DNA from: an uncultured Chloroflexia bacterium
Lineage (GTDB): Bacteria > Chloroflexota > Ktedonobacteria > Ktedonobacterales > JADMIN01
Direction: 5' to 3'
DNA length: 32,000 bases
Assembly (NCBI GenBank): GCA_963718915.1
Contig: CAVRAI010000009.1
Location: 60,001 to 92,000, forward strand
The notes beneath the pieces were generated by a model. The model saw only the letters and a list, made by a program, of their open reading frames with translations. It was not told the origin of the DNA and searched no databases. Shown here piece after piece: positions 7,545 through 21,614 of this stretch. The translations under genes were made by a program, and so were the position numbers. Numbering within the stretch: position 1 is the stretch's first letter; each line of letters begins with the position of its first letter.

Positions 7545-8480
7545 ATGCACGTAGATGATCCCTTTCCTACGTCGAGCCATCAGGTGCATGCCTCATGGGT
7601 GCAGCGGCTCCTGCTTCTCTATCCCCGCGCCTGGCGCGACCGCTATGGTGATGAGGTGGCTTCCGTGCTGGCCGAGCACCGCGTGACGTACTGGACGGCA
7701 CTGGATCTTATTCTGGGCGCGCTTGACGCCCACTTACACGGGGATCTGCTCCCCAGGAGGTTGGTATCCATGGCTCACCGCATTCGCAGCAGCGAGATTG
7801 CCATCTTTTGCGCCTTTGTGCTCTTCTGCATCGCCTGGTTGCCGCTCAGCCTCGTTCGCGATCCCCTGTCTATCTGGCAAGATGCCGTGACTGCGCACCC
7901 AGAACTGCTGATCGCGCTCACGCTCCTGGGCATCGCCGCGCTCATCGCGACGCTCGCCATCCTCGTAGGTGGAGTCCCGCTAGTGGTCTCCGCGCTCGCG
8001 CAATCGATCACCGCTCGCCGCTGGTGGCTGCTCGCGCTCTTCGCTGTTCCAATCCTTGCCGTCGCAGCGCTCGTTGTTGTCAAGCTCGGCGACATCCAGT
8101 GGTCCAGTGTCTCACAGTCGGGCGTGCTGTCCATGCGGCAGCCCATCGCTTTGCAGATCGGCCTGATACTTCTGCCGCTTGTCGCAATCGGAGGCAGCGC
8201 TGCGGCGGTCGCGGCGGCGATTGGGCGCAGTGAGTTGAGCCTCAGCATGTTCCGGTTTGCTTTGCTGCCCGCCGGTGTGGCCACCGCCGCGCTTGCGCTC
8301 GGTCTGCTTGGGGCTGTCACGCTCACGGCGCTGCTCTTCGCCGAAGCGCCACAGATCAGCGCGGGGCCACCGCTACAGATAGGGGGCCTCGTCGTGATGC
8401 TTGCTGCCGTCATCCTTGCAGCTTTCGCGTTGCGGCACGGCGTACAGGCAGCTCATGAAGGCCGACTGGCTGAGGATTAG
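7545..8480 (+). CDS. Polytopic membrane protein co-transcribed with PadR (function unknown)
   Basis: It starts 19 nt after the PadR stop. N-terminal LYPRAWRDRYGDEV is followed by about 6-7 hydrophobic spans. The stop overlaps the convergent J-domain gene stop. Confidence 0.6.
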   Translation: MHVDDPFPTSSHQVHASWVQRLLLLYPRAWRDRYGDEVASVLAEHRVTYWTALDLILGALDAHLHGDLLPRRLVSMAHRIRSSEIAIFCAFVLFCIAWLPLSLVRDPLSIWQDAVTAHPELLIALTLLGIAALIATLAILVGGVPLVVSALAQSITARRWWLLALFAVPILAVAALVVVKLGDIQWSSVSQSGVLSMRQPIALQIGLILLPLVAIGGSAAAVAAAIGRSELSLSMFRFALLPAGVATAALALGLLGAVTLTALLFAEAPQISAGPPLQIGGLVVMLAAVILAAFALRHGVQAAHEGRLAED

Positions 8481-8980
8481 ACAGTCTGGTGCAGCCAGCG
8501 GAGGATGGAGTCGGCGGCGAGGTTGATCGAGACCATCATCGTGTGGCCGCCGCCCGCGTCGGGATGATACTGGCGGGCGAGGGCGCGGCGGGCCTGCGTC
8601 ACGTCTTCGGCGGAGGCGCCCGGTGGCAGGTGCAGCACGCGATAGGCCGATTCGATGTCGCGCGGGATGTAGACACGCCGTTGCGCGCGCGGGCGGATGC
8701 TGGCGTAGAAGCTGCTGACATCCTCCGAGATGCTCGGCGAGCGCTGATGCCACTGCCCCAGCGCCTCGGCCAGCGCCGGGATGCGTCGCGCCAGTCGCGA
8801 GATGGCGTCCTGCGAGATCCACCAGATGCGCTCCTCGGCAATCCAGCGCCGCTGCCAGGGATCGAGGCCGACGACGACATGCACGGCTGGTGAGAAGACG
8901 CCCGCGCCGCCAGTGAACGCGATCAGAAAGCCATCCTCCACCGCCTCGAAGAGCAGCACGCGCAGCTCAGTCGCTTCCAT
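8477..8980 (-). CDS. J-domain (DnaJ-like) protein with an uncharacterised N-terminal domain
   Basis: C-terminal J-domain core YRVLHLPPGASAEDVTQARRALARQYHPDAGG carries the HPD tripeptide. ATG at 8980 is preferred (AGGAG about 9 nt upstream). The longer ORF reaching 9250 has non-coding-like composition. Confidence 0.7.
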   Translation of the reverse strand: MEATELRVLLFEAVEDGFLIAFTGGAGVFSPAVHVVVGLDPWQRRWIAEERIWWISQDAISRLARRIPALAEALGQWHQRSPSISEDVSSFYASIRPRAQRRVYIPRDIESAYRVLHLPPGASAEDVTQARRALARQYHPDAGGGHTMMVSINLAADSILRWLHQTV

Positions 8981-9482
8981 TCTGTCCCGACTCCTATTGC
9001 CTGCTTTTGAACGCAGATAGTCCCTGCGACTGGGGATGACCATTCGCACAGGAGAAGAATGCCATCTGGCGCGCGAAAAAACATCGGACGAATGGACGGT
9101 GCGCACTGGCCATATTCTGGGGTATAATGGGAGAGTCGGAAATTCCCCGGAATGCTTCCCCGAATTGATGTGCCGCCCGCGGTTACTGTGACTCGAAGGA
9201 TTGTTAAGCGCGGGCGAGGTGAGCAATAATCCGGCTTCGCGGCATGACATAGTTTTAGAGAATAGTGAGGACGGATCTCCAGCCTGCGACAGCGGTCTGC
9301 TGAGTGACGCATGCCGGAGCCTGCCAGCGAATTGCCCGGCCAGCGCAGGCGCTCATCCGTCCATCCGTCCATTCGCCGGAGCGTTCACGCTACGGTCTGC
9401 TCACCTCACCACAATGCCCGTGTCCGTCGCACGTGCTAACACAACATCATGCCGCGAAGGTCGATTGTCTGGCATCGCGTCA

Positions 9483-11042
9483 TCAGCCGTGGATGCCGTG
9501 GGCGTGCATTTCGGCCTCACGCGCCTCATCTTCGCGGCCCAGCGCGCGGAGCACCGCCGCTTTGTTCGCCCAGGCGGGCGTATAGTGGAGATCGAGCGTA
9601 ATGGCGCGGTCACAGGAGGCGAGCGCCTCGTTGTGGCGGCCCAGCGCGGCGAGAACGCCACCCTTGTTGCTCCAGGCGGCGACGAATGCTGGATCGAGTG
9701 AGAGGGCGTGGTCGCAGGCCAGCAGCGCTTCGTTGTGGCGGCCCAGGCGTGCCAGCGTACTGGCCTTGCGGTTCCACGTTGGAGCGGAGTTTGGCATGAA
9801 GGCGAGCGCCCGCTCGCTGGCGTAGAGCGCGTCTTCGTAGCGACCCATGCGGAAGTGCGCCGTGGCCTTGCTGGCCCAGGCAGCGCCAAAACTCGGCGCG
9901 TGCGCCAGCGCGGAATCATAGGCGGCGATGGCCTCATCGTAGCGCTGCAATCCGGCGAGCACCAGGCCTTTGTTTCGCCAGTAGTCGGCGGAGTTGGGAT
10001 TGCGGGTCAGTGCGGAATCATAGGCGGCCAACGCCTCAATCGGCCTGCCCAGTCCGGCGAGGGCGACACCCTTGTTGTTCCAGGCGAAATCGGAGTTGGG
10101 ATCGAGCACCAGCGCGCCATCGCAGGCGACCAGCGCCTCATCGTAGCGGCGAAGCTGCACCAGCACATTCGCCTTGCTCGCCCAGGCCAGCGCGAACTGC
10201 TCATTCAGCGCAATCGCCTGATCGTAGGCAGCCAGCGCTTCGGCAAAGCGAGCCAGCTCGGCGAACATGAATCCGAGATGGAACCATGCCGGCGATGACT
10301 GAGGGTTACGCTGCATCGCCTGCTGGAAGGCGGCCAGCGCCTCTTCGGGGCGGCCCTGGGTGCGCAAGGCATTGCCCTGTGCGATCAGGCTCTCTACGTC
10401 GTCGTCGGCGTGCGGACCAACCATTGCGTGGGGCGCATGGGGCACGTGCTGTGGTGGCGCGGTGACGACCTTGAAGCGTCCGCCGCTCTTCGGGCCGCTA
10501 TAGCCCTCGAAGCCCTCGACGTGCGTTACCTGTGTAGGCTGCGTCGGCTGTGATGGTTGCGAGGGCAGCGAGGATAGCGAGGATAGCGACGGCGGCGACG
10601 GCGGAGGCAGCGCCTCGACCATGGGCAGCAGCGAGAGCGAGCGAAGCGTCGCGTGAATCGCCTGATCGCGTGGCAACGTTCGGATGATGGGCATCGTGGG
10701 CTGTGTGTGGAAGCCCTCGAAGAAGGCGCGGAGCGCGTTATCGTCTACGGGCTGGGCCAGCACCGGCAGAAAGCGCCGGTTCGGATCGTGGCGCAGATAG
10801 GTCGCCGCCCAGGTGCAGGCGGCGGTGACGGTGCCAGATCGTAGCGCGGCGGGCGAGAGGATGACGATGAATACCGGGCGGGAACGCACCTCCGGCTCGA
10901 TCACCGGCAGCAGTTGGCTCAGCGCATAGTGCTGATCGTTGACCCAGACATCCGCGCCAGCATTCCGCAACGCCCCCACGAGGTCCTGACAAAAGTCGTC
11001 ATCCTCGGGCGTGTGGCTGACGAAAATGCGCGCTGGGTACAT
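9483..11042 (-). CDS. TIR-like (TIR_2-type) N-terminal domain, Pro/Ser/Gln linker, and about nine TPR repeats
   Basis: The N-terminus IFVSHTPEDDDFCQDLVGALRNAGADVWVND...RPVFIVILSPAALRS follows the TIR_2 pattern. The linker is PPPSPPSLSSLSSLPSQPSQPTQPTQ. The C-terminal half is 34-aa repeats (A/W..KG..L..LGR..EAL..YD.AL.L.P). ATG at 11042 has a GGAGA upstream. Confidence 0.75.
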   Translation of the reverse strand: MYPARIFVSHTPEDDDFCQDLVGALRNAGADVWVNDQHYALSQLLPVIEPEVRSRPVFIVILSPAALRSGTVTAACTWAATYLRHDPNRRFLPVLAQPVDDNALRAFFEGFHTQPTMPIIRTLPRDQAIHATLRSLSLLPMVEALPPPSPPSLSSLSSLPSQPSQPTQPTQVTHVEGFEGYSGPKSGGRFKVVTAPPQHVPHAPHAMVGPHADDDVESLIAQGNALRTQGRPEEALAAFQQAMQRNPQSSPAWFHLGFMFAELARFAEALAAYDQAIALNEQFALAWASKANVLVQLRRYDEALVACDGALVLDPNSDFAWNNKGVALAGLGRPIEALAAYDSALTRNPNSADYWRNKGLVLAGLQRYDEAIAAYDSALAHAPSFGAAWASKATAHFRMGRYEDALYASERALAFMPNSAPTWNRKASTLARLGRHNEALLACDHALSLDPAFVAAWSNKGGVLAALGRHNEALASCDRAITLDLHYTPAWANKAAVLRALGREDEAREAEMHAHGIHG

Positions 11043-11348
11043 CACTCGCCAATCTCCAACAGAGAGCATGGTCGTATCACCGCTAATCCTGGCTCAGAAG
11101 CGTCTATCTCACCATAACCATCGCGCGCCCTGTGAGTGCGTGTGCTAGGGATAATACCTTGACGCTTCACACTATGAGCCATTTTCCGGTACATATGGCA
11201 TAGGTCACATAGGCCGACATCGCGTGTCGCGTGGGGCTGGTAGCCGCCATTGCGAGCAAAATCAGGTCTCAGTATCCCACGCCAGGGCGGCCAGGCGCAA
11301 ATGGACTGCCCCATTGGAGTCTGGCCCTGTCGCGCGCTGGCCCTGTCG

Positions 11349-11822
11349 TTACCTCATTGGCCGCAGCAGCACCAGCGGAATCTCGCGGGTAATGTTCCGC
11401 TGGTAGCGCGCATAATACGGCGAGACACGCACCAGGTCGGCCCAGATGCGCGGGCGATCCACCGCGTCGACGAGGCTGGCGGTCGCCCACTGGCGCTTGC
11501 CCTCACGCTCGACCTCGACGGTGGGGTTCGCCAGCAGGTTGAGATACCACGCGGGCGGATAGTCTTTGCCATAATTGGAGCCGATGACGTAGGGTGTCTG
11601 GCCGTCGGTGTGGTACTCCAGCGGGATGGCGTAGCGCGCGCCAGTCTTGCGCCCGGTGGTCGTGAGCATCAGAAAGCGGCGTCCTGGGATTCTGGTGGCG
11701 AGCCTGCCGCGACTGGCACGATAGAGCCAGAGGTGAAAGCGTGCGAACGTGGGCGCGCGTGGCGGCGACGACGCAAGTGGTGGCAATGGAGACAATGGCG
11801 GCAATGATATTGTCTCGGTCAT
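11349..11822 (-). CDS. Deazaflavin (F420)-dependent nitroreductase-family oxidoreductase (DDN/PF04075-like)
   Basis: Family pattern: FLMLTTTGRKTGARYAIPLEYHTDGQTPYVIGSNYGKDYPPAWYLNLLANPTVEVE...YYARYQRNITREIPLVLLRP. ATG at 11822. Confidence 0.75.
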   Translation of the reverse strand: MTETISLPPLSPLPPLASSPPRAPTFARFHLWLYRASRGRLATRIPGRRFLMLTTTGRKTGARYAIPLEYHTDGQTPYVIGSNYGKDYPPAWYLNLLANPTVEVEREGKRQWATASLVDAVDRPRIWADLVRVSPYYARYQRNITREIPLVLLRPMR

Positions 11823-11975
11823 GATCGCTCCAGTGTTGGATATATGATTGCAGGCAGCAGCTGATGGTGATAAGCCTATGCTAGTCGATGGTATGATACA
11901 ACAAGCCACCGATGATGAAGTTGAGTAGAAGCCGAGCTGGTCAGGCGTTCACATGGTACTGAGAGGGATACGACT

Positions 11976-13124
11976 ATGCCTAATGACACGATAGTCTTTC
12001 CAAATCCACAGGCTACGCAACAGATCGACGGCGAATTCCCACGCGGCGAGGCGTTTGACTTCCATCAGAAACTACCGGGCTACAGGGAATCACCCCTTAT
12101 CGATGCTCCTGGCATTGCGGATGCGCTTGGCGTTGGCAAGGTCTGGGTGAAGGATGAATCGAGCCGGTTCGGCCTGCCAGCCTTCAAGTTTCTTGGCGCG
12201 TCGTGGGCGGTCTATCGCGTGCTGCTGGAGCGGATGGGCGGCAACGTTGAGCCGTGGCAGACGTTTGACGATCTGAGGGAGCGGTTCGCGCCGCTCAAGC
12301 CCCTCACCTTGGTAGCCGCAACGGATGGCAATCATGGCCGTTCCGTCGCGCGGATGGCTCGCCTCCTGGGGTTCGCGTCGCATATTCTCGTTCCACGCGA
12401 GATGGCTCTGGCGCGTATTGACGCCATCAAAGGCGAGGGCGCGGATGTTACGATTGTCGATGGAAGCTATGATGACGCCGTCACGCAAGCGGCGGCCCTG
12501 GCGTCGGAAAATACCCTGGTCATCTCGGATACGGCGTGGGAAGGCTATACGCGGATTCCCCGCTGGATTATGGAGGGCTATACCACCATTCTGCGCGAGC
12601 TTGACGACCAGCGGGCGGCAACAGGCGGTACCCGCGTGGATCTGGTCGCTGCCCAGATGGGCGTCGGCGGCCTGGCGACAGCAGTGGTGTGGCATTACCG
12701 GCGACCGGAGCTGACTGACCACCCCACATTAGTTGGCGTTGAGCCGTTAGCCGCCGATGCCATTCTGCGCTCAGCCCAGGCCGGGCACATGGTCGAGGCG
12801 CCGGGGCCGCATACATCTATCATGGCGGGACTCTGCTGCGGCGTTCCCTCGCTGGTGGCGTGGCCGATTATCGCGAAGGGCATCGACATGTTCGTCGCCA
12901 TCGACGACGAATGGGCGCGCGAGGCCATGCGCGAACTCGCTCAAGCGAGCGTCGTCTCGGGCGAGACGGGGGCGGCAGGCCTCGCTGGCCTCCTTGCGTT
13001 GCTCTCAGGCCCGGAGCGGGAGCAGCACAGGCGCCTGCTGGGACTCACACCGGATTCGCATGTCGTGGTTATCTCGACCGAAGGGGCAACCGATCCCGTA
13101 GCCTACCAGCAAATCGTTGGGTAG
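11976..13124 (+). CDS. dpaL: Diaminopropionate ammonia-lyase (PLP-dependent, YgeX-like)
   Basis: It tracks E. coli YgeX blocks: KDESSRFGLPAFKFLGASWA, ATDGNHGRSVA, DTAWEGYTRIPRWIMEGY, IMAGLCCGVPS, VSGETGAAGLAGL, VVISTEGATD. Confidence 0.85.
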   Translation: MPNDTIVFPNPQATQQIDGEFPRGEAFDFHQKLPGYRESPLIDAPGIADALGVGKVWVKDESSRFGLPAFKFLGASWAVYRVLLERMGGNVEPWQTFDDLRERFAPLKPLTLVAATDGNHGRSVARMARLLGFASHILVPREMALARIDAIKGEGADVTIVDGSYDDAVTQAAALASENTLVISDTAWEGYTRIPRWIMEGYTTILRELDDQRAATGGTRVDLVAAQMGVGGLATAVVWHYRRPELTDHPTLVGVEPLAADAILRSAQAGHMVEAPGPHTSIMAGLCCGVPSLVAWPIIAKGIDMFVAIDDEWAREAMRELAQASVVSGETGAAGLAGLLALLSGPEREQHRRLLGLTPDSHVVVISTEGATDPVAYQQIVG

Positions 13125-13140
13125 GTTCTCCCCGAACGTG

Positions 13141-14694
13141 CTATGACGCTGTCGCCGCCTTGGCGTCGGCCCACCACGCCAGCCACTCCTCCTGCGAGAG
13201 CGCATCGAGCGCGCGGTTCTCGTCGTGGGCGCGATGCTCCATTGCCGCGAAGCGGCGACGGAAGCGGCGATTGGCGCGCTGGAGAGCATCCTCCGGCTGA
13301 ACACCAAGGGTATCGGCGAGGCGTGCCAGCACGAAAAGCACGTCGCCCAACTCCTCGGCGCGGCGCTCCGGCGACTCATCCATCGCCTCAACCAGTTCGC
13401 GCGCCTCCTCGGCCAGCTTTTCGAGCACACCAGAGACATCGTGCCAGTTGAAGCCCACCTTCGCGCCTGTCCGCCCAAGCTCGTACGCCTGGAGGAGGGC
13501 GGGTGCGCTGCTTGGTACCTTGCGCAGAATGCTCTCGTGCTCGACCGCCTCGCCGCGCTCCTCACGCTCGCGCCGTTTGATCGCCTCCCAGTTGCGCACG
13601 ACATGCGCGGCGTCCTTCACCTGCACATCGCCAAAGACATGGGGGTGGCGGCGGATCAGCTTCTCGGTGATGTGCTGGTAGACGTCCGCCAGCGAGAAGA
13701 GGTCTTCCTCATCGCCAATCTCGGCCTGGAGGTAGACCTGGAGCAGCAGATCGCCCAACTCCTCAGCCAGCTTCTCGGCCATCTCCGGGCTGCCGTCCCA
13801 CTCGTCCAGCACCTCGGCGACCTCGTAGGCCTCCTCCAGCACATACTTGCGCAGCGACTGATGCGTCTGCTCGCGGTCCCACGGGCAGCCATCCGGCGCG
13901 CGCAGCTTCGCCACGATATGACGCAGGCCCTCCGGCGCGCGTAGCGCCTCGGTCGGCGGCAGCGGCGGAACATAGATCGTCGTCAGGTGGTCGGCGCGGT
14001 CATTGCGGTCCAACTCAACCAGCGGCATCCGCTCGATAGCCTCCTGCTCGGGCATGCCTGCCCAGCGCACGACAGTAATCTCCCAGTCGTCGGGATATAG
14101 CTCGCTCAGCGCCAGCTTGACGCCGCCCGCGACGCGGCGATTATAGACCTGCGCCACCAGCGCCGGAACCGTCGGCAGCACCGCGCCCGCAAGCGCCGCC
14201 GTCGAGACATCGGCCAGCAATGTGGCGTCCAGCAGTTGCAGATCACGTTGCAGTGGATCGATCCCCAGCGCCGCGCAGACTGGCTCGACAAAAGAAAGGC
14301 CCGCTACGATGCGCACCACGACGCCGCGATCCACCGCCAGCGCGCGCAACTGGCGCACCGACTCCTCGCCGATGAGCGGATGTCCCGGCACGGCGTAGAC
14401 CAGCGCCTGCCCAGCAGGCAGGGCTGCCGCCTGCTCCAGGAGTCGATTTGCCATCAGGGGATAGAGGTCGGCGAAGTTCTCGGCGCTGTCATAGAGCGCA
14501 TCGAACGAGTTCAGCGGCAGATTCGGGCGGCGCGAGCGCAGCGCATCCACGGTGGGGTGGCGCTCGGTGCGGACGACGACGGCGGAGGCGGTATCGAGAA
14601 TCGCCTGCGCCTCAACCGTCAAGTCCTCCCAGCGCCCAGGACCAAGCCCAACGACGATGATGATGGTCTGCGCTGCCTCAGTAACCTCAGCCAA
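13141..14694 (-). CDS. mazG: YabN-type fusion: tetrapyrrole-methylase-like domain plus tandem MazG NTP pyrophosphohydrolase domains
   Basis: The N-terminus IIIVVGLGPGRWEDLTVEAQAIL...VYAVPGHPLIGEES is TP-methylase-like. The C-terminus carries two MazG blocks: EEAYEVAEV...LAEELGDLLLQV, and EEARELVEA...AEELGDVLFVLARLA. TTG start overlaps the upstream PPIase stop by 8 nt. Confidence 0.85.
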   Translation of the reverse strand: MAEVTEAAQTIIIVVGLGPGRWEDLTVEAQAILDTASAVVVRTERHPTVDALRSRRPNLPLNSFDALYDSAENFADLYPLMANRLLEQAAALPAGQALVYAVPGHPLIGEESVRQLRALAVDRGVVVRIVAGLSFVEPVCAALGIDPLQRDLQLLDATLLADVSTAALAGAVLPTVPALVAQVYNRRVAGGVKLALSELYPDDWEITVVRWAGMPEQEAIERMPLVELDRNDRADHLTTIYVPPLPPTEALRAPEGLRHIVAKLRAPDGCPWDREQTHQSLRKYVLEEAYEVAEVLDEWDGSPEMAEKLAEELGDLLLQVYLQAEIGDEEDLFSLADVYQHITEKLIRRHPHVFGDVQVKDAAHVVRNWEAIKRREREERGEAVEHESILRKVPSSAPALLQAYELGRTGAKVGFNWHDVSGVLEKLAEEARELVEAMDESPERRAEELGDVLFVLARLADTLGVQPEDALQRANRRFRRRFAAMEHRAHDENRALDALSQEEWLAWWADAKAATAS

Positions 14695-17473: not shown

Positions 17474-18712
17474 ATGGGCGAAAGCATGACGGCGGAACAG
17501 GAAACGGACGAGACGCGACCGGGGCGGGGTGGGCGCCGGACAGCGGCGCAGGTGGTCTTGCTTGGCGCGTTCTTCATTGACCTCCTGCTCTATAGCCTCG
17601 TCGTCCCCTTCCTGCCGAGCGAGGCGGAGCAACTGGGCGCGACTCCAGCCATCACGGGGGCGCTCTTCGCCATGTATGCGGTGGGATTGTTCGGCGCGAC
17701 GCCGCTGGCCGCATGGCTTACTGACCGCGCTGGCCCTAGGCGGACGCTGCTCTGGGGGTTGGTGGCGCTGGGGAGCGCGACGCTGCTCTTCGCCTTCTCG
17801 CCCGCGCTCTCGCTGGGGCTGCCGGGCCTCTTCGTCGCCCGCACGGCGCAGGGAGCCGCCAGCGCGATCACCTGGACGGCTGGGCTGGCGGTGCTGGCGC
17901 AGTTATACACGGCGAAGGAGCGTCCGCGCATCTTTGCCCGCGCCTTCACCGTCACCGGGCTGGGCACGCTGATTGGCCCACCGCTCGGCGGCGCGCTCTA
18001 CTCCTGGGGCGGCTTTATGCTGCCCTTTCTCTTCGCCACCGGCCTGGTGCTGCTGGATGGCCTTGGCCGCGCCTTCCTGCTGCCCGGCGACGACCTGCTC
18101 CCCGCCACCCGGCCGGAACGTGGCGCATTGCGGACACTGCTCCGCGATAGGCGTTTCCTGCTGGGGCTGTTTGCGGCGGCGGCGGGCGCGGCGGCCATCT
18201 CATCGCTGGAGCCAGTGACACCGCTGCTGCTGGGCGGCTCGTTTGGCTTGCCCGCGTGGGCGATTGGCGCGGTCTTTGGCGTCATCTCGCTCTGCTTCGT
18301 CCTGATGCAGCCAGCGGTCAGCCGCACCGAACGCCGCCTGGGCGCGAGACTCACGATAGCGGTCGGGCTGGCAGTGACGGCAGGATGCTTTGCCGCGCTG
18401 GCGTTCGCCTCCAGCGTGTTCGTGGTGTTGGCGCTGCTGGCGGCGACGGGCTGCGCAATCTCGCTCGTGCTCATCCCCGCGCCGGAACTGCTCACTAGCA
18501 GCGGCCAGAGGCTGGCGGGGCCAAACGGCGCGGCGTATGGCGCGATCTATGCCGCCTACAACGCCGCCTACGCGCTCGGTATCCTCATTGGCCCGCTCAC
18601 CACGGGCGCCGCCGTCACCGCGCAAGGCGTGGCAGAGAGTTTTGTCTGGCTGGCGGTTATCCCGGCAATGGGCGCGCTGGCGCTGTTCCTGTTGCGGAAA
18701 CGAGCCGCATAA
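17474..18712 (+). CDS. MFS transporter
   Basis: About 12 hydrophobic spans with the MFS loop motif WLTDRAGPRRTLLWG. The start is placed at ATG 17474 (an alternative is 17486). The last three codons and the TAA stop lie inside the 39-bp direct repeat. Confidence 0.8.
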   Translation: MGESMTAEQETDETRPGRGGRRTAAQVVLLGAFFIDLLLYSLVVPFLPSEAEQLGATPAITGALFAMYAVGLFGATPLAAWLTDRAGPRRTLLWGLVALGSATLLFAFSPALSLGLPGLFVARTAQGAASAITWTAGLAVLAQLYTAKERPRIFARAFTVTGLGTLIGPPLGGALYSWGGFMLPFLFATGLVLLDGLGRAFLLPGDDLLPATRPERGALRTLLRDRRFLLGLFAAAAGAAAISSLEPVTPLLLGGSFGLPAWAIGAVFGVISLCFVLMQPAVSRTERRLGARLTIAVGLAVTAGCFAALAFASSVFVVLALLAATGCAISLVLIPAPELLTSSGQRLAGPNGAAYGAIYAAYNAAYALGILIGPLTTGAAVTAQGVAESFVWLAVIPAMGALALFLLRKRAA

Positions 18713-18738
18713 GACTGGATAGGCTACGCCGTGTGCTG
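18700..18738 (+). repeat. Direct repeat, left copy (39 bp, perfect)
   Basis: ACGAGCCGCATAAGACTGGATAGGCTACGCCGTGTGCTG. It spans the MFS stop codon and the last five codons (incl. stop) of the minus-strand 79-aa gene. Confidence 0.95.
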
Positions 18739-18963
18739 TTCATGCCGCTGTTGCTGATAGGCGGCGATAGCGTCGAGGATACCCTGCCGTTTGCGATACA
18801 CGCGAAAGAGTTCCTGACGGGCTTCCTCCAGGCGTTGGGGATCTTGCTGGCTAGCAAAAAGAGTAGCTTCTCGCATTGCTACGATCTCATTAAAGCGCTC
18901 CAGCCCAGCAATATAGCCAGCGAGTTCCTGGTCATTGGTGATAGGTGGTTGTGCGTCTTGCAT
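18724..18963 (-). CDS. 79-aa predicted helical protein, second gene of the cassette (unknown function)
   Basis: ATG at 18963 has a GGAGA SD about 10 nt upstream, 41 nt after the upstream gene's stop. The sequence MQDAQPPITNDQELAGYIAGLERFNEIVAMREATLFASQQDPQRLEEARQELFRVYRKRQGILDAIAAYQQQ is heptad-like. Confidence 0.5.
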   Translation of the reverse strand: MQDAQPPITNDQELAGYIAGLERFNEIVAMREATLFASQQDPQRLEEARQELFRVYRKRQGILDAIAAYQQQRHEQHTA

Positions 18964-19004
18964 CCGTACTCGTCTCCTACATGCAAACTCTTCACGCCAG
19001 ACAA

Positions 19005-19418
19005 CTATATCGTTAAAATCACCACTCCTCGCAGTTGTCCTATGCGGTCGGCTATAAAGAATCTCACCCATCCTTCGAGACCGAGCGGCGCCGTTTCTAC
19101 AAACACATCGAGTACAGCCAAATCCACCCCTTCCAGGCTCAGCTGTTGAAGCGTTGCTGTCTCACTAGCTCCGGTTGAAAGCAATGCCAGATCTATATCG
19201 TCAGGCTCATCCTTTCCTGAGACATAGCTACCATCAATAACAACGATCGTGCCGAGGTGCTGACGTCTCACGACATCTATGAACTGAGCAAGGGCCGAAT
19301 TGAGAACTTGCCGCTTAGCGTTCCGTGCAGGAAATGTAGCGAACACATCATTTATGTCCGTGACCTGATGCTGCCCAGGCGGTAATGTGCCATCAGGCTG
19401 CAACGGAGGCAAGGTCAT
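19005..19418 (-). CDS. Minimal nucleotidyltransferase-fold protein (MNT/DUF6932-like)
   Basis: The N-terminal G.LPPG.H motif (PDGTLPPGQHQV) and a pol-beta NTase signature (VIDGSYVSGKDEPDDIDLAL; G-S ... D-x-D) are present. The gene has lower G+C than its neighbours. Confidence 0.6.
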   Translation of the reverse strand: MTLPPLQPDGTLPPGQHQVTDINDVFATFPARNAKRQVLNSALAQFIDVVRRQHLGTIVVIDGSYVSGKDEPDDIDLALLSTGASETATLQQLSLEGVDLAVLDVFVETAPLGLEGWVRFFIADRIGQLRGVVILTI

Positions 19419-19492
19419 CTCATACCCCCACTTTTTTTCTCAAAGTATACACGCATTTCGCTTGAACCGGACTTCCTGCTGCTGTGGCGAAG

Positions 19493-19531
19493 ACGAGCCG
19501 CATAAGACTGGATAGGCTACGCCGTGTGCTG
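19493..19531 (+). repeat. Direct repeat, right copy (39 bp, perfect)
   Basis: It is identical to 18700-18738. It is preceded by TTCCTGCTGCTGTGGCGAAG, a diverged and 6-nt longer version of the MFS C-terminal coding sequence. Confidence 0.95.
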
Positions 19532-19571
19532 GTGGTTGTGCTGTAGCGCTCCATATATTCATGCGAGTGAT

Positions 19572-20489
19572 TTAGAGTTGCAGCGCCCCTTCCGCCACCG
19601 TCACGCCAGCGCCAAAAATGCTCACCTCATCATTCCGCAGGAGCACCTCGATACGACTCGGCCTGCCCAACTCATAGCCCTGTTCAATCATCACGGTCGC
19701 CTCAGGCGCTATCCTGCCATACCTCGCCAGGTAGCAGGCCAGTGGCCCCGCCGCGGTTCCAGTGGCCGGATCTTCGGCGATGCCCTCGGTGGGATTGAAG
19801 AAGCGTGTATGCGCCACAGCCGCTGGATCAACCGGATCAAGGCTGAAGAGATAGCAGCCCAGCCCGTCTACCGCGCGAAGCTGCTGGAAGAGGCGTTGCG
19901 CGTCTGGCTGAGCGCGCGTGATCGCGTCACGGCTGCGTACCGGCACGAGCAGATGTTCCGCACCTGTGGAGACCACCTGCGCGGGAAGACCCTCCACCGT
20001 CAGATCATCCGCCTCTAGAGCGAGCGCCTCGGCCAGCTTGCCCGGATCGCTGTGGATAGCGCCAAATGATGGCGCGGTCTGTCGCAAGCCGATTGCGGTT
20101 GGTCGCCACTGCGCCCCATTCGCTCCCTGCTCCGCCAGCACTTCCACAGGCAGAACATGCTCCCCAATCTCCTGATGAAAGACCGTCTGTGATCCCGCGA
20201 GCGGAAGCCGACCCGTCTCCGCCAGCCACCACCAGGTACCGAGCGCGTGATGGCCAGCCCCAGCGACCTCTACGCCTGTTGTGGTGAATGAGCGTAGGCG
20301 CCAGTCGGCCTCTGGTCTGGTTGGCGGAAGCAGGAAGACCGTCTCCGACTGATTGAACTCGCGCGCGATGCGCCGCATTGTCTCCACGCTCAACTGCTCT
20401 GCGTCAATCACCAGCGCGAGCGGATTCCCACTCAATGGCTCCCGCGCGAAAGCGTCAATCAAATAGAAACGAATCGTCTGCCCGCTCAT
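19572..20489 (-). CDS. PhzF-family isomerase (phenazine biosynthesis protein-like)
   Basis: Family hallmarks: FYLIDAFAREPLSGNPLALVIDAEQLS...MRRIAREFNQSETVFL...RSFTTTGVEVAGAGHHALG. ATG at 20489 is preferred (AAGGAG 7 nt upstream). Confidence 0.85.
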   Translation of the reverse strand: MSGQTIRFYLIDAFAREPLSGNPLALVIDAEQLSVETMRRIAREFNQSETVFLLPPTRPEADWRLRSFTTTGVEVAGAGHHALGTWWWLAETGRLPLAGSQTVFHQEIGEHVLPVEVLAEQGANGAQWRPTAIGLRQTAPSFGAIHSDPGKLAEALALEADDLTVEGLPAQVVSTGAEHLLVPVRSRDAITRAQPDAQRLFQQLRAVDGLGCYLFSLDPVDPAAVAHTRFFNPTEGIAEDPATGTAAGPLACYLARYGRIAPEATVMIEQGYELGRPSRIEVLLRNDEVSIFGAGVTVAEGALQL

Positions 20490-20695
20490 CAGTTGCTCCT
20501 TCTCCGCCATTCCTAATCTCCCGCAAGGGCAAGGAATGCGCGGGGATAGATTGGGCTTACCTGGAATGCCTCTGCCGCAGCCAGCAAGTCGTGGGAGCAA
20601 GCCCGCTCCAAGCGTACCTTACCCCGCACAGGCGGTTATCTGGCGCCGCCAGGTGAGCTAGCACTATGAGTGGTCGGTAGTGGTCGGCGCGCTGG

Positions 20696-21277
20696 TTATG
20701 ATCCCCAGTACTCACGGACGAAGCGCTGATATCCTTCAAAGATGCCGTATTCGCGCACAAGGCGAAGGATTTTCAGATGGTCACGGGCGATGGCGCGGTC
20801 TTCCTCATCTGGCAAAGTGGTGATTGACATTTGCATGAGTGCGGCGGCTTCATCACAGATAATGGTGTGGTGTATCCCAAGATAGGCTTTGGACTCGCCC
20901 CAGTTCGGTGTATTCATCCATTCGCGCATCAAACGCATGAGTTCAGCGTGGTCAGGCGCATTGGGTTCATGGAATGCCTCATCGCCAATCAGCGCGCGAT
21001 AGGCGGCGTCTACATTCTCTCCGAGAGACGATTCCAGCAGGCGCGCATGGAGCAAGAGTTCGTCGTCGATTGCCGCTTCCGCGCTTGTGCGCACTGAGTC
21101 GGCCACGCCCAGCAGTGCGAGTGCGCTTGCGGCGGCAGGCGTAATAAGCCCGGTATGCGCGTTCAACCATTCGCGTGAGAGCCGCCAAGAGCGCGTCTCA
21201 TACCACGGCAGCAGCTCTGGCGCGCTCACCTTAAAATACACGTAGCAGCCAAAGGGATCTTTCGGTTTGCCTGGCAT
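20696..21277 (-). CDS. Hypothetical protein (no family recognised); lower G+C than neighbours
   Basis: This is a 193-aa ORF with balanced, coding-like composition. It has its own near-consensus promoter upstream. Confidence 0.5.
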   Translation of the reverse strand: MPGKPKDPFGCYVYFKVSAPELLPWYETRSWRLSREWLNAHTGLITPAAASALALLGVADSVRTSAEAAIDDELLLHARLLESSLGENVDAAYRALIGDEAFHEPNAPDHAELMRLMREWMNTPNWGESKAYLGIHHTIICDEAAALMQMSITTLPDEEDRAIARDHLKILRLVREYGIFEGYQRFVREYWGS

Positions 21278-21408
21278 CTCAACGCCTCTCTTCTCACATC
21301 AAATTCCCGTACAGTCCACAGTTGAAGCGCGAAAGATTGATGCGTCGCACGAGCATGGATGAAGTCTGCCGCATGAAAAACCCGCCATAGTGTCTGACGT
21401 TGAGCCAA

Positions 21409-21437
21409 AGTATACTCTAATAACAGATGCCATGCAA
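21409..21437 (-). promoter_or_regulatory. Sigma-70-like promoter for the 20696-21277 gene
   Basis: The minus strand reads TTGCAT (21437-21432), a 17-nt spacer, then TATACT (21414-21409). This implies a leader of about 125 nt. Confidence 0.4.
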
Positions 21438-21550
21438 TACAAAACATCATGCAACCATGCGTGCTTCTTAGCCGTCCTGGCGCCTCATCTTTGTGCCCTC
21501 TGCCCTCATCGTCCTCTCATATTTCTCTGCCATAATGCTCTGGCACTCCC

Positions 21551-21587: not shown

Positions 21588-21614
21588 TTAGCAGTCGCCA
21601 CGTGTGACTGCTAA
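21588..21614. promoter_or_regulatory. CIRCE operator (HrcA binding site), variant half-sites
   Basis: The perfect inverted repeat TTAGCAGTC-N9-GACTGCTAA lies 66 nt upstream of hrcA. The consensus is TTAGCACTC-N9-GAGTGCTAA. Confidence 0.8.

Follow-up and report, generated by a model that had tools for sequence, protein, structure and literature searches.

The two exact 39-bp direct repeats that enclose a low-G+C gene pair at the 3' end of an MFS transporter gene are most likely two alleles of one ancestral gene junction, united by recombination between related genomes and with no dedicated insertion machine involved. The enclosed two-gene module, which encodes a DUF6932 nucleotidyltransferase and a 79-aa helical-hairpin protein, was most likely re-imported from a related bacterium at a pre-existing junction, leaving an ordinary recombination scar rather than marking a new kind of mobile element. 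We assign a probability of roughly 55% to the reading in which the MFS tail, the small gene and the DUF6932 gene of a lower-G+C relative entered the locus by junction-anchored recombination and displaced the resident gene end. Coordinates (Table 1) refer to the window, the whole 32 kb stretch of DNA analysed here, which comes from a metagenome-type contig.

Table 1. Features of the locus between the MFS gene and the hrcA promoter, in window coordinates
Feature	Position	Strand	Evidence or content
MFS (DHA1-type) transporter, conserved anchor gene of the locus	17474..18712	+	Pfam MFS_1, E = 3e-43
Atypical MFS 3' tail, probably imported with the cassette	18632..18699	+	Excess of unique substitutions; breakpoint
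Left 39-mer	18700..18738	+	MFS codons CGA GCC GCA and TAA, 11 nt spacer, reverse complement of the small-gene end
79-aa helical-hairpin protein gene	18724..18963	-	N-terminus MRDxQPPITND and C-terminus Q[HQ][TGS]A conserved
DUF6932 minimal nucleotidyltransferase gene, 137 aa	19005..19418	-	Pfam PF22014, 57 bits vs cut-off 27, residues 4-133
Module 5' leader	19419..19457	-	Contains CGTGTATACT, a -10-like box
Joint between module DNA and orphan MFS tail	19458..19472		No homology to L022 or any MFS tail
Orphan fragment of clade-typical MFS 3' tail (...LLLWRR)	19473..19492	+	CCTGCTGCTGTGGCGA; 16/16 identical to L021 MFS tail
Right 39-mer	19493..19531	+	Exact repeat search
Short remnant, possibly of an older small-gene copy (...LQHNH in frame ahead of QHTA*)	19532..19555	-	9/16 identity to left flank; in-frame reading
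Rest of variable segment, MFS to hrcA promoter	19572..21495	-	PhzF gene, 193-aa gene, low-G+C spacer
PhzF-family gene	19572-20489	-	Pfam PhzC-PhzF, E = 1e-55
193-aa orphan gene	20696-21277	-	In variable segment

Sequence and extent of the direct repeats

The perfect direct repeats described in the initial annotation were recovered in a window-wide search, in which the 39-mer ACGAGCCGCATAAGACTGGATAGGCTACGCCGTGTGCTG occurs in exactly two copies (18700-18738 and 19493-19531), both on the plus strand, in direct orientation, 793 bp apart and with 0 mismatches, and allowing up to 3 mismatches reveals no third copy in the 32 kb. The 39-mer gave 0 matches in 100 shuffles of the sequence, and the pair is the sole non-coding-type direct repeat of at least 18 nt with a spacing within 4 kb in the whole window. 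In addition to the MFS end, the left copy contains, on the minus strand, the 3' end of the 79-aa gene (its final four codons and stop, QHTA*), which the initial annotation had overlooked; this C-terminus is native to the small gene, being conserved in homologous pairs at unrelated loci. Weaker ungapped homology around the repeats extends over 72 nt (18683-18754 versus 19476-19547, 60/72 identical), and all 12 of its 12 mismatches fall outside the 39-mer (clustering P = 2e-5). By our own reading of the alignments, the orthologous stretch in L021, a related contig, is about 82% identical, a level at which a 39/39 match would arise with P = 4e-4, so the perfect identity represents more than simple conservation. 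A perfect block of 39 nt between far more diverged flanks resembles an att core, and this observation counts against the recombination reading.

The 39-mer did not prove to be a common dispersed repeat, a possibility that had been raised earlier: only two copies exist in the window, it is absent from IMG/VR, and its 18 nt sub-block GCCGCATAAGACTGGATA recurs, among the 61 loci searched, only in L021 and at the orthologous place. An integron attC cassette was rejected on the folding z-scores of both copies and both strands (-0.66 to +0.80), the folding test revealing no hairpin or dyad in the 39-mer, and a dif-like site was rejected by eye, since there is a weak resemblance to the dif XerC arm and no palindrome. 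A transposon or MITE was likewise rejected, as the duplications vary in length (18, 39(-85) and about 155 nt); no terminal inverted repeats are present at the module ends, which themselves vary between loci.

Two alleles of the MFS gene end

Orthologues of the MFS gene (80-89% identity) adjoin hrcA in Ktedonobacterales contigs. A diverged second copy of the MFS 3' end is indeed present next to the right repeat, and the translations given for the two ends (FLLRKRAA* for the MFS gene, FLLLWRRRAA* for the right fragment) are correct. The description of the right-hand end as 6 nt longer holds under a gapped alignment, but it is alignment-dependent and an ungapped alignment works as well. The polarity implied by calling this copy a surrogate end is probably reversed, because the right-hand tail is the clade-typical one and the tail attached to the MFS gene is the outlier. 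The orphan tail agrees with L021 at every position upstream of the variable codons and at 37/40 positions overall, and the right copy as a whole constitutes a roughly 70-85 nt orphan piece of a second junction allele. The attached tail (18632-18699), in contrast, is 67-70% identical to relatives that are 83-90% identical among themselves over the same stretch. Substitutions unique to the window number 13/68 in this tail versus 41/992 in the MFS body (Fisher p = 1.4e-5), compared with 1-2/68 unique substitutions of the relatives' own, and a max-chi-square breakpoint was located inside the MFS gene at 18631-18634 (permutation p = 0.0065 against L013 and 0.025 against L021). The atypical tail was found in no other retrieved MFS homologue, and A/T-ending codons are more frequent in it, according to our own reading of the alignment; it could instead reflect lineage-specific fast evolution. 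As is characteristic of 3'-end displacement, an orphan 3' fragment lies downstream of the module, the two ends are different alleles, and a recombination breakpoint falls within the anchor gene.

The MFS/small-gene junction in related genomes

Convergent arrangement of the MFS gene and the small gene is shared by several Ktedonobacterales. In L014 and six sister contigs (MFS 80% identical), a convergent gene for an 81-aa homologue of the small protein lies 4 nt past the MFS gene, the DUF6932 gene being missing at this junction, and on the P0076 contig (small protein 90% identical) a convergent 425-aa MFS gene is found 10 nt from the small gene. L021 (MFS 83% identical) keeps GCCGCATAAGACTGGATA and, as a stub, about 45 nt from the 3' end of the small gene, an analogue of the right-hand stub in the window; the latter, a very short piece, is possibly the remainder of an older small-gene copy, judging from its reading frame. 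The junction is therefore intact in two lineages and present as a decayed stub in a third, and on these comparisons it is ancestral and not an insertion joint. Entry of the cassette into an empty MFS 3' end, as originally proposed, fails because related genomes share the junction.

A search for the corresponding empty site (MFS, one 39-mer, PhzF) found none among the relatives fetched, which include no very close one, and PhzF occupies this locus in none of them; downstream of MFS, the relatives carry the small gene, its stub or unrelated genes. When the genome contigs were scanned with MFS for the empty site, the only relatives returned were 80% and 62% identical, and the DNA downstream was not syntenic. 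In L022, the DUF6932/small-gene pair lies directly beside the hrcA promoter, without PhzF. Homology among relatives in the hrcA promoter/CIRCE region begins near 21495, and no pair remnants were detected near the hrcA promoter. Small-gene DNA identity is 75-79% for same-locus and other-locus copies alike, so that small-gene phylogeny did not separate vertical inheritance from import.

Composition and gene content of the module

The lower G+C content attributed to the enclosed DNA was confirmed by computation: G+C between the repeats is 0.517, versus 0.695 in MFS, 0.63 in PhzF and 0.631 in the whole window. GC3 of the cassette genes (0.49 for DUF6932, 0.54 for the small gene) compares with 0.83 for MFS, 0.80 for hrcA and 0.87 for dnaK, and the low value of the pair relative to the host core genes (0.49-0.54 versus 0.80-0.87) points to import. 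GC3 is 0.73 in the L014 small gene, and PhzF (0.69) and the 193-aa gene (0.62) also fall below the core genes.

The nucleotidyltransferase fold suggested for the first gene is supported by the Pfam DUF6932 match and by the catalytic motif, in which D62-G-S-Y, K69, P72 and D76 are invariant and D74 is near-invariant. The AlphaFold2 model of this protein (pLDDT 94) has MNT antitoxins as its best PDB fold matches in Foldseek, although these are weak (E 0.02-0.05, TM about 0.4), and the protein reaches 15 bits with the NCBIfam MntA model, whose cut-off is 60; the enzyme may be distantly MNT-like. It also matches PADLOC PDC-M63A partially (residues 16-90, E = 6e-12), with no match to the PDC-M63 B component in the pair. 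Its closest homologue, 69% identical (L063), is situated between two methyltransferase genes, without repeats. A literature search found no paper mentioning DUF6932, and a PDB sequence search yielded 0 matches for either protein of the pair. Module homology with L022 covers 18723-19457, including the leader; the CGTGTATACT motif is also present upstream of the pair in L022, L026 and L063, and this -10-like box was not called in a generic promoter scan.

The 79-aa gene is preceded by an AGGAGA Shine-Dalgarno sequence, and its product has no Pfam, NCBIfam or PADLOC match. Its homologues form 77 clusters with Ktedonobacterales as the sole named source; a search of 1.84 billion representatives gave only 52 matches, and the plasmid, phage and IMG/VR collections gave 0. 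Tyr56 is invariant in the small protein, and Tyr17 and Tyr69 are nearly so. The AlphaFold2 model (pLDDT 93) consists of two long helices, for which Foldseek returned generic helical hairpins only and no specific fold match, and the protein lacks the conserved R-x4-6-H motif of HEPN. The earlier statement that the partner is not HEPN is supported by all three properties, namely the two-helix hairpin, the missing Rx4-6H and the lack of a family match. The small protein is also found with HicB-like proteins or alone. Collectively, the cargo is a conserved two-gene module made up of a nucleotidyltransferase with an intact catalytic motif and a very conserved hairpin.

Module contexts at other loci

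In L026, L054/L062 and L058, the comM 3' end is present in two to four diverged versions (31-477 nt), which lie between unrelated cassettes; the small gene is in the first cassette, and the orphan comM copies measure 31, 117, 148-157 and 477 nt. The L054/L062 contig was recorded in two samples, and the comM arrays, which may share ancestry, count as only partly independent cases. The DNA within about 8-10 kb of the L062 array contains no integrase; likewise, the initial report that neither integrase nor transposase is present agrees with the absence of such domains from the ORFs tested across the 32 kb window. At L039, promoter DNA forms an exact 18 nt repeat, unrelated to the 39-mer, on either side of the pair. 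The position of the module boundaries relative to the repeats differs from locus to locus, and no flanking repeats were found in about 25 other module contexts. The comM arrays suggest that homology-anchored re-seeding is recurrent in Ktedonobacterales.

Proposed mechanism and alternative explanations

Under recombination at the ancestral junction, the resident locus would have comprised the MFS gene with its clade-typical tail, followed by a decayed small-gene stub and PhzF. DNA arriving from a lower-G+C relative would have carried an atypical MFS end, the spacer, an intact small gene, the DUF6932 gene and the leader, and may have paired with the resident junction, with the 39-mer, the sole long identical stretch, as the site of pairing, crossover or conversion. 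An illegitimate join would then have connected the far end of the incoming DNA to a point about 20 nt short of the resident MFS stop, either by homology-facilitated illegitimate recombination (HFIR) or, if the fragment had circularised, by a Campbell-type single crossover. The outcome would be a 3'-end displacement in which the MFS gene acquired an imported tail, whereas the resident tail, 39-mer and stub were orphaned 793 bp downstream. In a homology-anchored event, the recipient would have read typical tail ending in CTGCTGCTGTGGCGAAG, 39-mer, GTGGTTGTGCTGTAGC, PhzF; under Campbell-type or site-specific integration, it would have read atypical tail ending in GTTCCTGTTGCGGAA, 39-mer, a sequence beginning GTGGTTGTG, PhzF. 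We infer the role of the 39-mer as pairing segment as well as the direction of transfer and the topology of the event, the latter two because no donor- or recipient-type genome was found among those retrieved. Orphan 3' fragments produced by HFIR or C-terminal displacement have published precedent (PMC5361080 and the rhs work cited there). However, HFIR normally employs longer anchors, and recipient DNA is usually deleted rather than duplicated, which counts against this reading.

A site-specific integrative element without its own recombinase, either CIME-like (CIMEs being defined in PMC5704250) or mobilised in trans, in which the 39-mer would be the att core and a surrogate MFS end would be carried along, is rather unlikely. 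Perfect direct repeats over the 3' end of a target gene, with the MFS stop included and the flanks diverged, would fit such an element, as would the low-G+C cargo and the fact that several genomes carry the module at the 3' end of one of two target genes, MFS or comM. There is also a precedent in Chloroflexi, where tandem ssrA islands are bounded by a 20 bp gene-end repeat and some lack integration genes (PMC3146451), and under this reading the conserved MFS/small-gene junction of the relatives would stem from integration at one attB, either repeatedly or long ago. However, no recombinase was detected in the 32 kb window or in the ~8-10 kb around the L062 comM array, the orphan comM fragments of 31 to 477 nt have no common crossover point, module ends are unfixed relative to the repeats, and the roughly 25 other contexts are free of flanking repeats. 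Independent insertions share no core, as the L039 repeat is an unrelated 18 nt and there is one MFS case only; the 39-mer has neither hairpin nor dyad structure, and no empty attB (MFS, one repeat, PhzF) occurs in the relatives fetched. Moreover, homology extends to both sides of the core, so that the reconstructed attP simply equals a relative's chromosomal junction, and the MFS-internal breakpoint at about 18632 is not predicted. It is doubtful, too, that cassettes ending with the 79-aa hairpin gene form a recombinase-less mobile family, which would insert beside gene 3' ends or promoters by an undescribed mechanism, leave target duplications that differ in length (18, 39 and about 155 nt), and involve the small protein itself in mobilisation or retention.

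The direction of transfer may also be reversed, with the pair and the atypical tail resident and with the orphan junction fragment, PhzF and the 193-aa gene incoming, anchored on the hrcA side. This seems improbable, given that the atypical MFS tail and the very low GC3 of the pair would need a separate explanation, although PhzF and the 193-aa gene occur at this locus in no relative while the pair or the small gene does, the L022 pair directly adjoins hrcA, and both additional genes have GC3 values (0.69 and 0.62) below those of core genes. Gene conversion between close repeats is common, and the two repeats are only 793 bp apart; both points would accommodate an origin by local duplication of the junction inside a single genome, for instance as a 793 bp tandem unit that lost most of its second copy, after which the flanks diverged and conversion kept 39 nt identical. 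This origin is nevertheless very unlikely, because the right-copy tail is nearer to L021 (16/16) than to the left copy, indicating a different allele and not a drifted copy, and because the mismatches are strongly clustered; furthermore, the 13 unique substitutions lie in the attached tail and the orphan is clade-typical, the opposite of the decay expected of a non-functional copy. An assembly artefact, in which two strain haplotypes of a variable locus were stitched in series in the metagenome-assembled contig, is highly improbable. The locus does vary between strains, and the DUF6932, small-protein and MFS sequences were all found on one contig of 322,588 bp and have no further member sequences; however, a serial join would require reads linking 19472 to 19473, a point without a shared k-mer between the alleles, and independent assemblies contain similar structures, among them that of L054/L062, a contig recorded in two samples.

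Relation to known systems

The locus recalls in its logic the 3'-end displacement of rhs, CDI and T6SS effector-immunity genes (PMC5361080 and its references 41, 42, 44 and 47), where an incoming module uses a conserved upstream gene as its anchor, the displaced 3' end survives downstream as an orphan, no recombinase is involved, and arrays grow by repetition, as in the comM loci here. It differs in that the anchors are ordinary genes (an MFS transporter and comM) rather than polymorphic toxins and in that the displaced piece is tiny, about 70-85 nt; because cargo and anchor gene point towards each other, the 3' ends of both lie within the homologous anchor. With 3'-end integrative and cis-mobilisable elements (PMC5704250; Dehalococcoides ssrA islands, PMC3146451) the locus shares direct repeats containing the target 3' end, low-G+C cargo, tandem arrays and the existence of members without integration genes. 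In contrast to those elements, no integrase is found nearby, the comM repeat lengths are variable and not fixed, homology flanks the core on both sides, and relatives have the junction without a second repeat.

The gene pair itself resembles HEPN-MNT (HepT-MntA) type VII modules (PMC7641770, PMC11586414) in that a small nucleotidyltransferase gene precedes a small partner gene, the catalytic G-S...D-x-D motif is kept in DUF6932, and MNT antitoxins are the best structural matches. However, the partner here is a 79-aa two-helix hairpin without Rx4-6H, the MntA score and the fold match (TM about 0.4) are low, and the partner also occurs with HicB-like proteins or by itself. The DUF6932 protein partially fits the A profile of the PADLOC candidate PDC-M63AB, and the pair has no match to a B component; in an E. 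coli NILS69 test, PDC-M63AB itself gave no defence activity (PMC12409345). As a low-confidence guess by analogy, DUF6932 may act in an MNT-like way, either nucleotidylating its small partner or being titrated by it, in the manner of a toxin-antitoxin or defence pair.

Implications

To a specialist, the findings offer little surprise overall. If the main reading is true, recombination with relatives would return small accessory modules to one and the same chromosomal junction, and orphan gene ends would be datable scars of such events. This displacement logic is known from rhs, CDI and T6SS loci and would here apply to ordinary genes in Ktedonobacterales. In addition, the analysis defines an uncharacterised and narrowly distributed gene pair, a DUF6932 nucleotidyltransferase with a helical-hairpin partner, which by analogy is a candidate non-HEPN variant of MNT-type toxin-antitoxin or defence systems.

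Exact direct repeats and the enclosed gene pair

The 39-mer ACGAGCCGCATAAGACTGGATAGGCTACGCCGTGTGCTG occurs exactly twice in the window, in direct orientation (18700-18738 and 19493-19531), as described in the initial annotation; no third copy with up to three mismatches was found in the window, and none appeared in shuffled sequence. The repeat is genuine and chance is excluded. No other sizeable direct repeat with copies within 4 kb occurs anywhere in the window, apart from those of a gene (9483-11069, minus strand) encoding a TIR-domain protein fused with eight TPR repeats of 102 nt each. Ungapped homology around the two copies reaches 72 nt (60/72 identical), and all 12 mismatches fall outside the 39-mer (P = 2e-5). 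On the plus strand, the left copy contains the last three codons and stop of the MFS transporter gene, and on the other strand the last four codons and stop of the 79-aa gene (QHTA*), an overlap that had been overlooked. In pairs from unrelated loci on other contigs (L001, L022, and L063), the small gene has the same QHTA* end, so 15 nt within the 39-mer belong natively to this gene. The 39/39 match nevertheless goes beyond conservation (P about 4e-4), since the orthologous stretch of L021, the MFS locus of a relative, is only about 82% identical (an approximate reading) and the allele flanks differ by 30-40%. The block is best read as a site of pairing, crossover, or conversion.

The 754 bp between the copies hold two genes, and their low G+C, remarked on initially, was borne out (G+C 0.517; GC3 0.49 in the DUF6932 gene and 0.54 in the 79-aa gene), with GC3 far below host values (MFS 0.83, hrcA 0.80, dnaK 0.87). 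The nucleotidyltransferase fold proposed for the first gene agrees with its Pfam match and with its structural model (pLDDT 94), which has a nucleotidyltransferase core; in the motif D-G-S-Y...K..P.D-x-D, all positions are invariant except D74, which is near-invariant. The top PDB matches of the model are MNT antitoxins of HEPN-MNT systems, albeit weak (E 0.02-0.05, TM about 0.4), and the NCBIfam MntA model scored far below threshold. The small protein is modelled as a two-helix hairpin preceded by a 10-residue tail (pLDDT 93), and the structural search gave no specific relative. Unlike the partner in HEPN-MNT systems, it lacks a HEPN motif, as the initial annotation had judged, and membership of the pair in these systems fails on the partner. 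An MNT-type mode of action is a reasonable guess. The PADLOC candidate PDC-M63A covers part of the enzyme; one test found no defence activity for this candidate (PMC12409345). Upstream of a familyless 168-aa ORF is a second small nucleotidyltransferase gene (NTP_transf_2, 5136-5666), which may form a further MNT-type pair with this ORF (4199-5666, minus strand). Elsewhere in the window, an acetyl-CoA synthetase-like gene (2443-4114) appears to be divided between overlapping ORFs at 2443-3501 and 3434-4114, each with parts of the AMP-binding domain, suggesting a frameshift or sequencing error. A homologue of the NpmA-family 16S rRNA (A1408) methyltransferases, a type known from aminoglycoside resistance, is encoded at 5996-6670 (minus strand; Pfam E = 1e-52).

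Coordinates of the gene pair in the window and of comparable arrangements on other contigs
Feature	Location	Position	Strand	Remarks
DUF6932 gene	Window	19005-19418	-	Pfam 57 bits (cut-off 27)
79-aa gene	Window	18724-18963	-	No family match
HicB-like gene, then small gene	L054	2530-3240		With HicA
HicB-like gene, then small gene	L058	2271-3240		
HicB-like gene, then small gene	L040	599-1162		
comM 3'-end array	L026	32-2365		Copies about 155 nt; exact blocks 38, 21, and 25 nt
comM 3'-end array	L062 (same contig as L054)	6277-14574		Three orphan comM fragments over about 8 kb
comM 3'-end array	L058	1713-5018		Copies 31 and 117 nt

Distribution of the pair and of the small gene

The DUF6932 gene and the 79-aa gene, in this order, form a conserved pair, present on many metagenome contigs and in metagenome-assembled genomes in at least eight different genomic settings, with Ktedonobacterales as the only organism named among its sources. 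The small protein, which keeps the N-terminus MRDxQPPITND and the C-terminus Q-x-x-A, is markedly more conserved (84-90% identity) than the enzyme (58-69%) and also exceeds all its other partners in conservation; its gene also follows HicB-like genes and is solitary in L014. Its profile gave 52 matches among 1.84 billion representative proteins, and no match was found in plasmid, phage, and IMG/VR collections. In L042 (about 300-340), three tandem copies of the small gene's final 12 nt (CAGAGCGCCTAG) stand at its 3' end. In L039 (395-435), a tandem duplication (CGCGACGATCGATGAA, twice) breaks the reading frame of the DUF6932 gene, which is probably a pseudogene.

The MFS-hrcA locus and its two tail alleles

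In relatives, MFS orthologues (80-89% identity) adjoin hrcA as in the window, and the DNA from the MFS stop to the hrcA promoter/CIRCE (about 18713-21495) varies between genomes. A convergent small-gene homologue lies 4 nt after MFS, without DUF6932, in L014 and six sister contigs; on the contig of homologue P0076 (small protein 90% identical), it and a convergent MFS gene of 425 aa are 10 nt apart. In L021, GACTGGATA and a stub of about 45 nt from the small gene's 3' end come after the MFS stop, and in L022 the full pair directly adjoins the hrcA promoter. Because the L014 group, the P0076 contig, and, as a stub, L021 carry the convergent MFS/small-gene junction, it is old at the locus and no product of a recent insertion, contrary to its initial interpretation as an insertion joint; the empty site then envisaged did not occur among the relatives' loci retrieved. 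The PhzF-family gene and the 193-aa gene downstream of the pair were found at this locus in no relative examined. The hrcA operator (CIRCE) of the window (21588-21614) reads TTAGCAGTC-N9-GACTGCTAA, against the canonical TTAGCACTC-N9-GAGTGCTAA in 4/4 relatives, a change that is symmetric in both arms and keeps the inverted repeat. A more distant relative (L008 7695-10309) has tandem paralogous genes immediately after its MFS orthologue, with repeats of 100-556 nt that are 69-83% identical.

The second, diverged MFS 3' end recognized earlier beside the right 39-mer is a clade-typical tail fragment occupying the 20 nt to its left: CCTGCTGCTGTGGCGA matches the L021 MFS tail at 16/16 positions, or 37/40 by our own count when the first 18 nt of the core are included. 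The outlier is the tail attached to MFS, from about 18632. This stretch is 67-70% identical to L013, L021, and L014, which share 83-90% among themselves, and window-unique substitutions amount to 13/68 here versus 41/992 in the gene body (Fisher p = 1.4e-5). Max-chi-square analysis places the breakpoint at 18631-18634 (permutation p = 0.0065 and 0.025), and the attached tail type was absent from all MFS homologues retrieved. A/T-ending codons are commoner in this tail, and the L014 small gene (GC3 0.73) is nearer to its host (0.83-0.85); together with the GC3 of the pair, these compositional features support a putative import of the pair. Beyond the right 39-mer, on its right-hand side, 16-24 nt with the in-frame reading ...LQHNH|QHTA* may be an older small-gene stub, as in L021, in a stretch too short for proof.

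Comparable arrays and proposed origin of the structure

A comM/yifB-type Mg-chelatase gene in each of three other genomes has the small-gene cassette at its 3' end, enclosed by diverged copies of this gene end. Overall, these arrays hold two to four diverged 3'-end copies of unequal length (31-477 nt) that separate unrelated cassettes: HicA-HicB with the small gene, a membrane protein, a BNR protein with alcohol dehydrogenase, and a 5'-3' exonuclease. No two of the three genomes have related second cassettes. In L026, a third copy lies about 1.2 kb downstream of the second. The orphan fragments of L054/L062, called as ORFs of 76, 186, and 94 aa, are set apart by unrelated cargo including the alcohol dehydrogenase and BNR protein, and no integrase was found within about 8-10 kb of the L062 array. 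Common ancestry of the comM cases is possible, because L026 and L054 have derived bases in common in the copy after the small gene. An exact 18-nt repeat of promoter DNA stands on both sides of the pair in L039, and about 25 other contexts showed no flanking repeats; the distance from repeat to module end differs between loci. The variable fragment lengths and module ends and the repeat-free contexts speak more for homology-anchored exchange than for a dedicated recombinase that would use a fixed core.

In the proposed event, a lower-G+C relative would have donated its MFS tail, spacer, small gene, DUF6932 gene, and leader to a resident locus carrying the typical tail, small-gene stub, and PhzF. 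One side would have been settled by homology, while the other end (19472|19473) would have been joined illegitimately about 20 nt ahead of the resident stop, resulting in 3'-end displacement. Alternatively, the same map, but with the parental flanks exchanged, would arise if a circularised fragment integrated by a Campbell-type single crossover within the 39-mer. The recipient genomes predicted by the two versions differ, and displacement by import is the simplest single event yielding the structure. Such displacement has been put forward to explain orphan arrays at rhs, CDI, and T6SS loci and ascribed to homology-facilitated illegitimate recombination (PMC5361080), and the window event would be of the same kind.

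A CIME-like site-specific cassette mobilised in trans is a less probable alternative; a perfect core with diverged flanks is the usual look of att sites, and the tandem islands of Dehalococcoides, likewise bounded by a gene-end repeat and in some cases without integration genes, provide a precedent (PMC3146451, PMC5704250). However, a recombinase was found neither among the window ORFs tested nor near the L062 array, fragment lengths vary, homology lies on either side of the core, and the breakpoint inside MFS would be left without explanation. Local duplication with conversion is disfavoured, because other genomes resemble the orphan tail more closely than its partner copy does, and an assembly artefact is unlikely. 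Import in the reverse direction, with PhzF and the 193-aa gene arriving beside a resident pair, is a real alternative but rather improbable. The best-supported reading is a recombination scar, combining two alleles of the ancestral junction with 3'-end displacement and enclosing an uncharacterised module of nucleotidyltransferase and hairpin genes with foreign composition. Being better conserved than its partners, the 79-aa hairpin gene may be the constant component of such cassettes.
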